Origin: a virus
Lineage: Duplodnaviria > Caudoviricetes
IMG/VR virus record: IMGVR_UViG_3300034161_000018
Span: 64,001 to 128,000 of that record
Length of the DNA stretch: 64,000 nucleotides
Strand: one strand, 5' to 3'
Under the pieces are notes generated by a model. That model saw only the letters and a list, made by a program, of their open reading frames with translations. It made no database searches and was not told the DNA's origin. A program made the translations under genes and the position numbers. Of the stretch, positions 10,242 through 35,098 are shown piece by piece. Each line of letters opens with the position of its first letter. Position 1 is the first letter of the stretch.

Positions 10242-11840
10242 TTAAGCAGTGGCCGTCACGTATTCAACGGCGGTGGAAATTTGCCCGGTCTTCGCAACGG
10301 AAGTGGTAAACAGAATCCGCTTCCCGTACCGCGTCGGTTGGATGTAGTAAATCAATACCACGTCGCCGTTTGCGATTTGTTCTTTCGGGTTGGTTTCTTC
10401 GTCGCACTTCACTTTGTAGTTGTACAAACCGCGACCGGATTTGATCGGGCCGAGAATGTCTTCCACAATTTGCGCAAGCGTTTGCCACAGGAACGGATCG
10501 TTCGGCTCGAAAACCCCGACCATCGTTTCGTACTTGGCGCGTTTTTCAATCAGGTTAATCAGACGACGAACCGGAATGTCGGACAGTGCGGAACTGGCAG
10601 CTTGCAGAGTTTGCGCGCCCCAAACACAGAAACCGTATCCCGAAAGAACGTGAATGAAGTTAACTTGGTTTTGATCCATCATGTTCCGGTCGCCAAGTTT
10701 GTAACGTTGGGCAACATCGGAAACTTCGGAATCGAGAGCACCGCGATTCACACCGGCTGGCGCAAACCATTCGGCAGCGTTGGCGTCGTTGTATGCAAAC
10801 ACGGCAGCGACCACGCCAGAAGGCGGGCAATTAACGGACTGGCCGTCATCGGTCATTACCACAACGTCCGGCGTATACAGACCACCGAAAGAAGTATTTG
10901 CATTCAGCACGTTGCGACGGAAAGTCGAAGCGGCTTGCGAAGTTTGTTGATCGGACGGAACGTCGAGGATCGCGAAACAATCGCGGCGAGCAATTGCAAT
11001 TTCCAGCATGCGCTGTTGCACGCTCACGTCGGTGTAACCACAGTTAATCAAAATGGTTACTTCGACTTCTTCCGGTTCTTCAAACGCATCCCAACCTTCG
11101 ACAATATCGCCGACAGTCACAGGATCGCCGTCGTGGCCTTGAGCCAAGTCGCCGGAAATCACAGCGTTGATCGAACGGAAAGCACCTTCGGTTTCTTTCC
11201 ACTTCGGCGCGTCTTCATTCACCATTGCACGCAAGCGAGAATCCGCCGCTTCCAATTGGGTGATGATGTTTTTCTGTTTGCCGTAGCCGTCAGTTTTATC
11301 GCGCAGAGTGGCACGGTAAGTTTCTACCGGAACGCTCAGGTTGTCTTCGTAGATTTCCAGAATGAACAATTCATTTTCAATGTCGTTCACGTCTGGATAC
11401 ATCACGACACGAATGTTGTTGTTCCACGCGCCGGGGTCAGCCGCATAAAGGAACAAAACTTCTTCCGGCACTTGCGTGCGTTGCGTCGGGTCTTCGTAAC
11501 CTTGATCGGCTACTTTGATTTGAGCGTAACCGTCAATGAAACGAACGCTGATCGAACCGAACAAAGCGTTTACCGCTACCCGGTTGAACCACAGTTGATT
11601 CGAGTATTTCAGGAATTGCTCGGCGCAGAAGTGGGCAAAAGTCAAAGACGCATCGCGACGACCGAATTTCTTACGAAAATCGTTTACGTCAACGGCCAGC
11701 GTAGGAACGCCGACTTTACCGCGCTTCGATGGGCCAACAATCGCGCCAATGCTCGGGGCGGTTTTGCGAGCAGTTTGCGAATTATCTTGCTCGCCTCCGT
11801 AAACCCCAGCACTTGTGCTGCTACCGTTATACAAGGGCAT
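10242..11840 (-). CDS. tail sheath protein 1 (gp18-like)
   Basis: 532 aa; AGVYGGEQD, PGAWNNNI, CFAILDVP, WFAPAGVNRG, WGAQTL...IPVRRL, VFEPND. Confidence 0.93.
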   Translation of the reverse strand: MPLYNGSSTSAGVYGGEQDNSQTARKTAPSIGAIVGPSKRGKVGVPTLAVDVNDFRKKFGRRDASLTFAHFCAEQFLKYSNQLWFNRVAVNALFGSISVRFIDGYAQIKVADQGYEDPTQRTQVPEEVLFLYAADPGAWNNNIRVVMYPDVNDIENELFILEIYEDNLSVPVETYRATLRDKTDGYGKQKNIITQLEAADSRLRAMVNEDAPKWKETEGAFRSINAVISGDLAQGHDGDPVTVGDIVEGWDAFEEPEEVEVTILINCGYTDVSVQQRMLEIAIARRDCFAILDVPSDQQTSQAASTFRRNVLNANTSFGGLYTPDVVVMTDDGQSVNCPPSGVVAAVFAYNDANAAEWFAPAGVNRGALDSEVSDVAQRYKLGDRNMMDQNQVNFIHVLSGYGFCVWGAQTLQAASSALSDIPVRRLINLIEKRAKYETMVGVFEPNDPFLWQTLAQIVEDILGPIKSGRGLYNYKVKCDEETNPKEQIANGDVVLIYYIQPTRYGKRILFTTSVAKTGQISTAVEYVTATA

Positions 11841-11885
11841 GTTGTGTCTCCAGTTAAAATCCCGAAAAACGATTGGGATTACCTT

Positions 11886-11892
11886 TAAATTA
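11886..11892 (-). promoter_or_regulatory. candidate late-promoter core TAATTTA
   Basis: Intergenic, about 45 nt before sheath 1; the same heptamer precedes sheath 2 and the 281-aa gene. Confidence 0.35.
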
Positions 11893-11896
11893 TCCG

Positions 11897-32802: not shown

Positions 32803-32806
32803 TAGA

Positions 32807-33451
32807 TCACCGTTGAATGTCCGAGGAAGTCAGTTTGCGCCACGTAGCCGAAGTTGGGCTATCAGCAACCAGAGTGGCGCCAACAACTGGAACAACACTT
32901 TGGTTAATGGACACAACACCGGTTTTGGTTTTGATTTTCGTCGCCGGAACTTCCGGGTGAGTGTGCGGTTTCGGAGTACGCGCATCGCTCAAACGTGGAT
33001 CGCCTTCGCCCACAACAACTGGATCGCTGGCGTTTTCCGGAGTGAAAGACAAACGCGCAATACCTTGAACGGAAGTCGTCGCAGCCGGAACTGGTTCGTT
33101 TTCGTTCAACAGCGCGGTGTCTTCGGCGTCGTAAACCTGATCGACAAAAACTTGGTCGATGGTGTCGATCAATTCCCACTGGTGAACGAAACCGGAGTTT
33201 GCCACAGTGGTTTTCGATTTACGGCGCAGTGCCATTTTGTAATACGGCGACAGCGGGTCGAAAACGAACCACGTCACATTGAGCGGCAGAATCAAAGTGC
33301 TCGGTTCGCGCACGGCACAAACGATTGCGGTCACTTTGCGAATCGTAGGATTCGACAAGCGGTGAACGATTGGGTTCGTTTCGTCCATGTTGCGAATATC
33401 GGAAGCAACTTCCAGACTGCCAATGAGGTTTTGCAATTTCAGATCGGACAT
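32807..33451 (-). CDS. short fibre-anchor paralog
   Basis: Shared N-terminal domain plus PAATTSVQGIARL and DPRLSDARTPKPHTH tail-fibre motifs; no Ig repeats. Confidence 0.75.
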   Translation of the reverse strand: MSDLKLQNLIGSLEVASDIRNMDETNPIVHRLSNPTIRKVTAIVCAVREPSTLILPLNVTWFVFDPLSPYYKMALRRKSKTTVANSGFVHQWELIDTIDQVFVDQVYDAEDTALLNENEPVPAATTSVQGIARLSFTPENASDPVVVGEGDPRLSDARTPKPHTHPEVPATKIKTKTGVVSINQSVVPVVGATLVADSPTSATWRKLTSSDIQR

Positions 33452-33457
33452 TTGGAA

Positions 33458-35098
33458 TTAAGCCTCGGTGAAGGACACGGCGCCGGTCGGTTGCACGTTG
33501 GCTCCGAGGTGGGCACGCTTGGCCGGGATTTCAGGGTCGATAATCAAATCGAGTTTAATGTCGTTGTTGGCAATGCTCGCCGGTTTGTTGTTGCGTTCGT
33601 CGCAGATCGTAACCCACTCGTAAACGCCACGGCCCGATTTGATTGGGCGCATGAAATCGTCGCAAATGTTTTTCAATTTGAGACGTTCAAAACCGTCGTT
33701 CGGGTTGAACACCGATGGAACGGTTGCCGCTTCGATACTGGTTTTGATGAAGTTCACCAAACGGCGGACGTTCAAGTTGCTGAAACCGGAATCGAAAGTT
33801 TGCATCGTGCTTTGGCCCATGATTACAAAACCACGGCCCGGAATGTTTCGGATGATGTTTACTTGCGCAGCATCCAGAGCATCACGCGCACCTTGGTTGT
33901 AACGTTGGCGCAGCGAACGCACGTTTACTTGACCGCGATTCAAACCGGCTGGCGCGAACCAAACAGCGCGATTGGTATCGGTGTAGGCACAGGCCGCACC
34001 GACGAACGCACTTGGCGGAATGAAAATGTTTTTGTTGGAATCGGTATCCAGCACTTCCACGAACGGCGCGTAAATTGCGGAATAACTGGAGTTCAGGTTC
34101 AGCGTGTTGCGACGATAATTAACCGCCCGCGAAACTTGAGCCATGTCATCCGGCAAGTCCAGAAGTGCAACACAGTCCCCACGCATTTTCGCGATGGAAT
34201 CCATTTTCTTCTGGTAAGCGGTTGTGGTGTAACCGGAGTTGATAAGCAGGTTGACGAGGATTTGTTCTTTGTCCTCGTACAAGTCCCACGCGTTAATCAG
34301 ATCAACTTGTTTCGGACGATCACCGTCCGCACCGCCGTCCAATTGTTCAAACGCCGCTTTACCGACGCGCACTGGTTTGCAGAGCGAGTTGTTTTTCACG
34401 CGAATGTACGCGGAACGCAGGTTGATTACGTCTTCGACAAACAGTTGTTGATTGTTGCCGTCGATTTCATTTTTCCGCGAACACAGGAACGATTCGACCG
34501 GAGTGTTTCCGGTGCCAGTGTAGTCAATGAAAACATCGACCACGAATTGGAACGGATCGGAATGTTCGCCGACTTCGGTGCCAGCCGTATTCGATGGACG
34601 AACCTGAATCGAAAGACGGTTGTTCCATTTGCCGGGGTTGGCTGCGCAGAAATACAACATTGCGTTTTCTACGCCGATGGTGCCATTCACAAACCCGAGA
34701 GTTTTGAGCGGATCGCCCAAGACGCCCAAAGGCTGATTGGTGCCATCGTCGAAATTCACCAGTTTGATAACTGGATATTCGGCGTTCATATCGTCAACCG
34801 AAAGATACGCGCCAGCGGTGCGGGCGGTGGCCGGGTCAACAACACGAGTGTAGAAAAGTCGTTTGGATTGTGCGAGGAAGATTTCGGCGGAATACAAACC
34901 GAAACCGTATTTCTTCGCGTTTTTGATACCGAATTTTTCGCGAACATCAGCGCGGTCGGTAACGAGGGTCGGAACACCAACCGGCCCCATTGGAGCTTCA
35001 CCGACGATTACGCCGATGGATGTTGCAGCCGCCGTTGCGCGGATCGACAAATCCTGCTCGGCGCTGTAAGTACCAGCACTGGTATTTGGGAAAGCCAT
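33458..35098 (-). CDS. tail sheath protein 2 (gp18-like)
   Basis: 546 aa; AGTYSAEQD, NPGKWNNRL, CVALLDLP, WFAPAGLNRG, MGQSTM...LNVRRL, VFNPND. Confidence 0.92.
   Translation of the reverse strand: MAFPNTSAGTYSAEQDLSIRATAAATSIGVIVGEAPMGPVGVPTLVTDRADVREKFGIKNAKKYGFGLYSAEIFLAQSKRLFYTRVVDPATARTAGAYLSVDDMNAEYPVIKLVNFDDGTNQPLGVLGDPLKTLGFVNGTIGVENAMLYFCAANPGKWNNRLSIQVRPSNTAGTEVGEHSDPFQFVVDVFIDYTGTGNTPVESFLCSRKNEIDGNNQQLFVEDVINLRSAYIRVKNNSLCKPVRVGKAAFEQLDGGADGDRPKQVDLINAWDLYEDKEQILVNLLINSGYTTTAYQKKMDSIAKMRGDCVALLDLPDDMAQVSRAVNYRRNTLNLNSSYSAIYAPFVEVLDTDSNKNIFIPPSAFVGAACAYTDTNRAVWFAPAGLNRGQVNVRSLRQRYNQGARDALDAAQVNIIRNIPGRGFVIMGQSTMQTFDSGFSNLNVRRLVNFIKTSIEAATVPSVFNPNDGFERLKLKNICDDFMRPIKSGRGVYEWVTICDERNNKPASIANNDIKLDLIIDPEIPAKRAHLGANVQPTGAVSFTEA

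Follow-up and report, generated by a model that had tools for sequence, protein, structure and literature searches.

The window analysed here is a stretch of 64,000 nucleotides from an uncultivated jumbo phage, for which a complete virus record of 274,896 bp with terminal repeats is available. It contains two full-length tail sheath genes on the minus strand, encoding proteins of 532 aa (sheath 1) and 546 aa (sheath 2) and separated by 21.6 kb; the complete genome has exactly two sheath genes. An earlier note on this DNA, made from the sequence alone, had reported both reading frames, and we confirmed them together with four motifs (AG.Y..EQD, PG.WNN, WFAPAG.NRG, and VRRL) that are present in both translations. 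The features of the two loci are collected in Table 1.

Table 1. Features of the sheath 1 and sheath 2 loci (positions within the window)
Feature	Coordinates	Strand	Characteristics
gp25-like gene	3129-3461		farther downstream of sheath 1, with other tail genes
Second gp19-family tube-like protein, 168 aa	9157..9663	-	phrog_45, E 1e-21; weak PF06841 match
Tail tube protein, 169 aa	9719..10228	-	13 nt after the end of sheath 1; E 1e-30 with phrog_45 tail tube
Sheath 1, 532 aa	10242..11840	-	PF04984 and PF17482; tree clade A; ancestral sheath-then-tube order
Short hairpin in sheath 1 leader	11858..11880	-	between TAATTTAA motif and ribosome-binding site
TAATTTAA motif	11885..11892	-	44 nt before the start codon of sheath 1; candidate promoter element of the phage
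409-aa protein	26950..28179	-	4-nt overlap with fibre gene end; PF20294 KMPT-N, phrog_35607
Fibre-like protein, 762 aa	28176..30464	-	N-domain, then Big_2-type Ig repeats; phrog_13325, phrog_14098, Pfam Big_2
Fibre-like protein, 775 aa	30475..32802	-	N-domain, then Ig-like repeats; phrog_13325, phrog_14098 'tail protein'
Stand-alone N-domain protein, 214 aa	32807..33451	-	6 nt downstream of sheath 2; phrog_13325
Sheath 2, 546 aa	33458..35098	-	PF04984; tree clade B, SH-aLRT 100; relocated paralog heading the fibre module
TAATTTAA motif	35162..35169	-	63 nt before the start codon of sheath 2; candidate promoter element of the phage
Intrinsic-terminator-like hairpin and T run	35206..35231	-	five G-C pairs; ends the gene upstream of sheath 2

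Both proteins are members of the contractile tail sheath family, which has a subtilisin-like domain (PF04984) and a C-terminal domain (PF17482). Sheath 1 scores 50 bits with PF04984 and 40 bits with PF17482, both over the curated cut-off, while the respective scores of sheath 2 are 45 bits (over the cut-off) and 19.6 bits (under it). The two sequences align end to end with 35% identity (E 3e-100), and with sheath domains recognized in both, their earlier description as clearly diverged yet intact holds. Both also resemble gp18-type sheaths of known structure (E 1e-37 for sheath 2); the matches include Pvc4, Pvc3, Afp3, and Afp4 chains of extracellular contractile injection systems (eCIS), with distant homology in the C-terminal core. 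The PDB copy that we searched has no tail structure of the Lu11/PaBG group and none showing the arrangement of the two paralogs.

Sheath 1 had been placed with tube and baseplate genes; we found two gp19-family tube genes next to it, a gp25-like gene and other tail genes farther downstream, and the capsid gene four genes upstream. The first tube protein has a weak PF06841 match and is syntenic with Lu11 gp060; the second, syntenic with Lu11 gp059, shares with it 22% identity over 82 aligned residues. The '19939 tube paralog' of the earlier note did not stand, its similarity to the tube protein being confined to the first 23 residues. The major capsid gene lies between both sheath genes, as does a homolog of the head maturation protease, and has 79% nucleotide identity to the Lu11 'major head protein'; nucleotide similarity between the window and Lu11 is confined to part of this gene. 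Gene order, on the other hand, is syntenic gene for gene with Lu11 gp057-gp083, and the sheath proteins are 53-57% identical to those of Pseudomonas phages Lu11 and PaBG. By gene order and protein identity, the phage is a relative of Lu11 and PaBG. An eCIS of the Afp/PVC type was also considered and rejected, because capsid and replication genes (as well as portal-region genes) are present in a virus genome of this size with terminal repeats.

No tube gene adjoins sheath 2 among the neighbouring ORFs in the window. The three genes downstream of it are paralogs that share an N-terminal domain (N-domain) and all match phrog_13325. The earlier reading of this module as three fibre paralogs and no tube is correct as to the three paralogs and the tube, but one of the three is a stand-alone N-domain protein of 214 aa. 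This protein shares 60.6% identity with the 'structural tail protein' of PaBG and has more than 100 clusters of homologs (210-218 aa). It aligns with the N-terminus of the 775-aa fibre-like protein, which is 43% identical to Lu11 gp080, and the 762-aa fibre-like protein likewise aligns at its N-terminus with the N-domain paralogs. The 409-aa protein that follows is syntenic with Lu11 gp078 and possibly fibre-associated. A 655-aa gene farther along (24977-26944) was rejected as a fibre gene, as it encodes NAD-dependent DNA ligase.

An AlphaFold2 model of the 214-aa protein had a mean pLDDT of 29 when built from the single sequence and of 80 with a 50-row alignment. With this protein, a profile search of PDB gave no match, and with its model, Foldseek against PDB gave none at E <= 0.001, while the best Z in a wide VIA-align search was 3.3, without a fold match. 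The search of BFVD retrieved homologs from the same phage group only.

We checked the genes neighbouring sheath 2 by tblastn and hmmsearch in PaBG, Lu11, Y3, NCTB, and two metagenome contigs. The order of sheath 2, then directly one or more N-domain proteins (210-215 aa), then one or more N-domain fibres with Ig repeats was found in 7 of 7 genomes. The genomes that show this linkage, and the N-domain alongside paired sheath genes, all belong to one clade, so that the pattern amounts to one evolutionary event. The neighbours of two basal sheath 2-type representatives (P0115 and P0108) include genes of 201, 210, and 214 aa.

A pair of sheath paralogs is a published trait of this phage group, described for PaBG as a 'two-component tail sheath' (Kurochkina 2018 Virology 515:46; Day 2018; Evseev 2020, PMC7412058), and phiRSL1 is reported as the only phage of the group without a second sheath gene (PMC6143709). 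The earlier note had not recognized this hallmark. In our maximum-likelihood tree, the sheaths form two sister clades, each with one paralog from the window phage, Lu11, PaBG, NCTB, and Y3, and the sheath of phiRSL1, which has one such gene, falls outside both. The window phage thus carries two full-length paralogs, each orthologous to one clade, as do members of the Lu11/PaBG ('Lupandier') group. Judged by this tree, the two genes are orthologs of the PaBG pair that is common to the Lu11/PaBG/NCTB/Dickeya/Erwinia jumbo phages, and the duplication took place before the Pseudomonas, NCTB, and Erwinia phage lineages diverged. Both paralogs are intact in all lineages examined. One sheath that split off earlier than the duplication is followed by a tube gene, so that sheath 1 has retained the ancestral context. 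As the trait is already published, the window adds no more than one new member of the group, uncultivated and fairly distant; the invariant order of sheath 2 and N-domain genes, the fixed length of the presumed outer domain of sheath 2 together with its better conservation than in sheath 1, and the occurrence of TAATTTAA before both sheath genes go beyond the cited papers.

The pair can be compared directly with its counterparts in two cultivated phages. For sheath 1, identity is 57% with Lu11 gp061 and 53% with the PaBG sheath encoded near the capsid gene; for sheath 2, it is 55.5% with the PaBG ortholog, 54.1% with Lu11 gp082, and 46.5% with the NCTB ortholog; paralog identity is 38% in PaBG versus 35% in the window. 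As in the window, one PaBG copy lies near the tube and capsid genes and genes for a 214-aa protein and then a fibre come after the other. However, PaBG has one fibre of 1524 aa where the window phage, a different and uncultivated virus, has two of ~770 aa, and its sheath genes are ~118 kb apart. The gene order of Lu11 is closest overall, including motifs before both sheath genes and a terminator before sheath 2, although protein identity is only 54-57%. Mass spectrometry of CsCl-purified PaBG virions identified both sheaths (gp213 and gp76), together with the neighbouring gp214 and the fibre gp215 (PMC7412058).

Each sheath gene had also been credited with its own candidate promoter. A rare element, TAATTTAA, does precede both genes and is matched in Lu11, but no sigma-70 promoter was found by scanning upstream of sheath 1 or sheath 2. 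The window has only 3 copies of TAATTTAA, all intergenic and on the coding strand, and for 7 of the 8 copies in the genome, an ORF begins 19-63 nt downstream. In Lu11, gp082 (sheath 2) is preceded by TAATTTAA and gp061 (sheath 1) by its one-base variant TAATTTAT. On this pattern we infer a candidate phage promoter element. The motif CTGTAAATA, annotated in Lu11 as 'middle/late promoter', was rejected as a promoter, since it was found only inside the gene that precedes sheath 2, at the 3' end of that gene. Lu11 has hairpins corresponding to both of those in Table 1, one at the position of the sheath 1 leader hairpin, with a different stem sequence, and an equivalent of the terminator-like hairpin upstream of gp082. 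Since the latter hairpin ends the upstream gene, sheath 2 is predicted to begin its own transcription unit. In a search of sequencing runs for sheath 2, the best share of sampled words was 0.32, none reached half, and no RNA run was listed.

A separate motif for each gene and a terminator before sheath 2 could indicate that each paralog forms a homopolymeric sheath of its own, only one of which is used in a given virion or in a second contractile particle, so that two tail types would result; recombinant PaBG sheath protein indeed self-assembles into polysheaths (PMC6357053). We consider this very unlikely. The promoter-like motif is the same at both genes, which suggests co-expression rather than alternation. 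In addition, there is no tube or baseplate set beside sheath 2, a single sheath-tube cluster is seen in the window and the genome, and PaBG is reported with one morphotype, an ordinary A1 myovirus whose small appendages are confined to the tail end (PMC7412058). The absence of such a set and the one morphotype also leave the second contractile structure or virion morph suggested in the earlier note without support. Its other suggestion, a heteropolymeric sheath, agrees with the published two-component sheath of PaBG, but the proposed role of sheath 2 as fibre carrier finds only indirect support.

The divergence between the paralogs is unevenly distributed. The N- and C-terminal core segments of sheath 2 are 36-40% identical to sheath 1, and the middle regions of the two paralogs 25%. 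Within the sheath 2 clade, the middle region (residues 91-262 of sheath 2) has 42% identity and exactly 172 aa in 5 of 5 phages, compared with 36% identity and 149-162 aa in the sheath 1 clade. Additional sheath domains are known to point away from the tube (PMC9230969), and by homology the middle domain of these paralogs is presumed to be surface-exposed. The resemblance of the cores would also suit a redundant duplicate with no distinct role, a view that we find hardly credible: sheath 2 is kept intact and in unchanged gene context across lineages diverged to ~33% identity, its middle domain is conserved and fixed in length, and its ortholog is present in PaBG virions.

Taken as a whole, the locus probably encodes an orthologous two-component sheath, with both paralogs in one lattice and, more tentatively, sheath 2 as the docking site for N-domain proteins and fibres. 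A single ancestral sheath gene was duplicated long ago, and both copies were retained. Sheath 1 stayed directly upstream of the tube gene, and sheath 2 relocated and now heads a predicted transcription unit with the stand-alone N-domain protein and the Ig-repeat fibres, which carry this domain at their N-terminus. By analogy with PaBG, both paralogs are probably present in the virion of the window phage, where the conserved N- and C-terminal core would let them co-polymerise, so that a single contractile sheath encloses a single tube. As they differ chiefly in the middle domain, the positions occupied by sheath 2 would be distinct on the tail surface, and the likeliest use of this difference would be docking of the N-domain proteins and fibres.

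Sheath 2 always lies beside fibre genes and never beside a tube gene, and the PaBG appendages are found at the tail end only. These facts would also fit a sheath 2 outside the contractile lattice, where it would form its own ring or collar, at the neck or the periphery of the baseplate, that only anchors N-domain fibres and leaves sheath 1 alone contractile. In eCIS, the minor sheath paralogs Pvc4, Pvc3, Afp3, and Afp4 occupy defined positions. We regard a separate ring as improbable, because the conserved core of sheath 2 is complete, with the N- and C-terminal segments that make lattice contacts, and because the authors of the PaBG studies call the sheath itself two-component and both proteins give Coomassie-visible bands.

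Within the two-component sheath, the invariant order of sheath 2, N-domain protein, and fibre and the conserved, fixed-length middle domain appear to fit sheath 2 as fibre anchor. We tentatively propose, as a rather doubtful but concrete possibility, that the fixed-length outer domain of sheath 2 docks a clade-specific N-terminal anchor domain, and that the lattice pattern of sheaths 1 and 2 determines the positions of the fibres and the 214-aa protein along the tail. Complex prediction with sheath 2 and the 214-aa protein, both given as alignments, returned a score of 0.00, which counts for neither side. Given the small appendages at the tail end of PaBG, the N-domain fibres may sit at the baseplate instead of the sheath. 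If docking is true, it would be a molecular address code for the 'hairy' tails of the group (Lu11 is reported as 'hairy Myoviridae'; PMC6143709), undescribed for any contractile tail. The invariant linkage and the constrained outer domain make this a concrete hypothesis that is open to test in the cultivable phages PaBG, Lu11, and Y3, and it would bear on the way in which large phages position accessory fibres on a surface that moves and contracts.

Fibres along the contractile tail are also known in phAPEC6 (Rak2-like), a jumbo myovirus of an unrelated lineage, where they occupy three annular positions on a homomeric sheath of a single 97-kDa protein (PMC7247149). Thus a second sheath protein is not required for tail hairs. 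The eCIS (Afp2/3/4, Pvc2/3/4) resemble the window phage in having several sheath paralogs per contractile particle, but they are capsid-less tail-like particles with sheath proteins of 354-451 aa, whereas the paralogs of the window belong to a true virus and stem from an independent duplication. The type VI secretion system also builds its contractile sheath from two gene products, TssB/TssC (VipA/VipB). TssB and TssC are, however, two halves of one sheath protomer, unlike the two full-length paralogs of the window phage.

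The record that contains the window, as its bases 64001-128000, is 274,896 bp long, carries direct terminal repeats and is rated complete, and it encodes exactly two tail sheath proteins. Coding in the window is nearly all on the minus strand, where both sheath genes lie. Sheath 1 and sheath 2 align over their full length with 35% identity (E 3e-100). Each has matches to Pfam's tail-sheath domains, PF04984 and PF17482, and sheath 2 additionally touches the Pfam model for the gp18 domain III N-terminal part. All four sheath motifs quoted in the earlier note were found in both translations. 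Because of these open reading frames, alignment, domain matches and motifs, its observation of two full-length sheath genes is correct, far beyond chance.

Features of the window and its record discussed in the text
Feature	Position	Strand	Length (aa)	Remark
gp25-like protein	3129-3461	-	110	
First tandem paralog	7444-8391	-	315	phrog_13792
Second tandem paralog	8388-9167	-	259	phrog_13792
Sheath 1	10242-11840	-	532	
Antisense frame	10137-11888	+	583	opposite sheath 1
Leader hairpin	11858-11880	-		between TAATTTAA and sheath 1 ribosome-binding site
TAATTTAA copy				44 nt before sheath 1 start
Antisense frame	14763-18341	+	1192	opposite capsid-to-653-aa-gene region
ORF with tube-like N-terminus	19939-20406	-	155	
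NAD-dependent DNA ligase	24977-26944	-	655	
Antisense frame	32780-35149	+	789	opposite sheath 2
Sheath 2	33458-35098	-	546	
First gene downstream of sheath 2			214	stand-alone N-domain
Second gene downstream			775	N-domain, then Ig-like repeats (Big_2)
Third gene downstream			762	N-domain, then Ig-like repeats (Big_2)
TAATTTAA copy				63 nt before sheath 2 start
281-aa gene	60371-61216	-	281	phrog_17573
TAATTTAA copy	61249-61256	-		32 nt before start of 281-aa gene
ORF outside the window	254855-255526 of the whole record	+	223	

The two-sheath trait is a published hallmark of the Lu11/PaBG group of jumbo phages, and the window belongs to a new uncultivated member. The best relatives of sheath 2 are in the Pseudomonas phages PaBG (55.5%), Lu11 (54.1%) and HRDY3 (53.8%), followed by phage NCTB (46.5%) and Erwinia and Yersinia jumbo phages (about 33%), and every record listed has two matching places. 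Nucleotide similarity to Lu11 is confined to part of the capsid gene (79%). Gene order follows Lu11 gp057-gp083 nearly gene for gene: two tube genes, sheath 1, three unknown genes, the major capsid protein and prohead protease, then a glycosyltransferase, the DNA ligase, a 409-aa protein, two fibre-like proteins, the 214-aa protein and sheath 2. Two sheath proteins are annotated in every phage of the group but phiRSL1, and both yield the same phylogeny (Day et al. 2018, PMC6143709); the two-component sheath has been ascribed to a gene duplication that followed divergence from the phiRSL1 lineage (Evseev et al., PMC7412058, citing Kurochkina et al.). Both PaBG sheaths (gp213 and gp76) are among the 14 Coomassie-visible proteins of CsCl-purified virions, as are gp214, a 'putative tail component', and gp215, a 'long tail fibre' (Evseev et al. 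Table 1, PMC7412058). The window therefore holds a known trait in a new relative. Judged by size and consecutive numbering, gp213-gp215 would be the counterparts of sheath 2, the 214-aa protein and a fibre, and gp76, which lies four genes away from gp80, the capsid gene, that of sheath 1.

The earlier note had also considered a second contractile structure or virion morph. This is unlikely: sheath 2 has no second set of tube or baseplate genes next to it, and one morphotype only is reported for PaBG. The best-supported reading, by analogy with the description of PaBG, is a single contractile sheath in which both paralogs would surround one tube. Recombinant PaBG sheath protein forms polysheaths (PMC6357053). 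The ORF at 19939, previously called a tube paralog, is 65% identical to the tube protein N-terminus over its first 23 residues; no similarity was detected for the remainder, nor any Pfam or PHROG match, and the label is not established.

A maximum-likelihood tree was rooted on phiRSL1 and comprised 49 sheath proteins, including the window pair, both copies of Lu11, PaBG, NCTB and Erwinia phage Y3, and 38 representatives retrieved by searching 1.8 billion proteins. It resolved two sister clades, one with sheath 1 and the tube- or capsid-linked copies of other phages, and the other (SH-aLRT 100) with sheath 2 and the fibre-linked copies. On this phylogeny the duplication is older than the divergence of the Pseudomonas, NCTB and Erwinia phage lineages, which agrees with published work. 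In a representative that branches just outside both clades a tube gene comes next, so that sheath 1 retains the ancestral sheath-then-tube order and sheath 2 is the relocated copy.

Three regions were scored on an alignment of five named phages (sheath 2 numbering). For residues 1-90, 91-262 and 263-546, respectively, identity was 36%, 25% and 40% between paralogs, 38%, 42% and 45% within the sheath 2 clade, and 42%, 36% and 44% within the sheath 1 clade. The middle region, with the gp18 domain III N-terminal match on one side and the conserved C-terminal core on the other, is exactly 172 residues long in all five sheath 2 proteins versus 149-162 in sheath 1 proteins. By homology it appears to be the additional domain of sheath proteins, which points away from the tube (PMC9230969). 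The lattice core is thus common to both paralogs, while the exposed domain of sheath 2 is distinct and more constrained, modestly suggesting, from five taxa, a conserved binding surface.

Gaps of just 4-10 nt separate the three genes that follow sheath 2. The N-termini of their products all match phrog_13325 and can be aligned across about 210 residues, where 36 positions are invariant, an SD.RT...H.H motif among them; we call this the N-domain. The three fibre paralogs of the earlier note do exist as these proteins, while the 655-aa gene is a NAD-dependent DNA ligase. Like its counterparts in Lu11 and PaBG, the latter lies within the tightly packed gene run that follows sheath 2; tail genes and a replication/repair enzyme are apparently transcribed together. 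The stand-alone 214-aa protein has more than 100 metagenome homologue clusters, nearly all of 210-215 aa and at least 46% identical. For the N-domain, an AF2 model (mean pLDDT 80) gave no convincing match among solved structures, and its matches among viral models were confined to the Lu11/PaBG group.

Sheath 2 may also carry the fibres, an inferred step beyond the two-component sheath. The seven genomes compared were those of the window, two distant metagenome contigs and the phages Lu11, PaBG, NCTB and Y3. In all of them one or two genes for the N-domain alone come after a sheath 2-type gene, and then one or two large proteins starting with the N-domain; in Y3 one extra gene sits right after the sheath gene. 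This invariant linkage and the constrained outer domain favour the fibre-carrying reading, as does the confinement of the N-domain to two-sheath phages. Among cultured phages the domain occurs in 65 records; the hosts named are those of the group (Erwinia, Dickeya, Pseudomonas, NCTB) plus single Salmonella, Yersinia and Alcaligenes records, with none from Ralstonia phages, so phiRSL1 is absent. Hair-like appendages along the tail have also been reported in Lu11 and Y3. However, PaBG is described as an ordinary A1 myovirus whose micrographs show small appendages at the tail end only; the unrelated hairy phage phAPEC6 bears its hairs on a sheath of one protein, and the whole comparative evidence comes from one clade. 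How the two paralogs are arranged in the tail, and what the N-domain proteins linked to sheath 2 do there, are questions for cultivable relatives.

Outside the window, a 223-aa ORF with a weak N-domain profile match (E 1e-4) lies among virion structural genes and adjoins a 265-aa ORF. It could represent the end of the N-domain system that acts as partner or receptor. The viral fold search detected, in PaBG, NCTB and a Dickeya phage, N-domain-like proteins of about 265-280 aa that may be its counterparts.

Each sheath gene had been assigned its own candidate promoter. No sigma-70-type promoter was predicted upstream of either, but a shared octamer, TAATTTAA, keeps the proposal plausible for both. 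Its three copies in the window are all intergenic and on the coding strand; genome-wide there are eight, roughly as many as composition predicts, and seven of these lie 19-63 nt upstream of a same-strand ORF start. In Lu11 the corresponding positions ahead of sheath 1 and sheath 2 carry TAATTTAT and TAATTTAA, respectively. The common motif suggests co-expression. A G+C-rich hairpin with a T run precedes sheath 2 and closes the upstream gene, likewise in Lu11. The hairpin in the sheath 1 leader may be a leader stabiliser or weak terminator; Lu11 also has a hairpin at this place before gp061, but its stem differs in sequence. The ribosome-binding site of the 281-aa gene, GGAGACAC, is near-identical to that of sheath 1, and this gene, too, is probably late or structural and strongly expressed.

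The three very long antisense frames are most likely a codon-usage by-product in highly expressed genes, not real genes. The adjacent, overlapping 315- and 259-aa paralogs, the former with a weak baseplate-hub match, are another tandem duplication in the tail module. The 110-aa protein matches baseplate-wedge (gp25-like) families, and the 'tail sheath' label carried by both its best PHROG and its Lu11 homologue gp054 looks like a database naming error.
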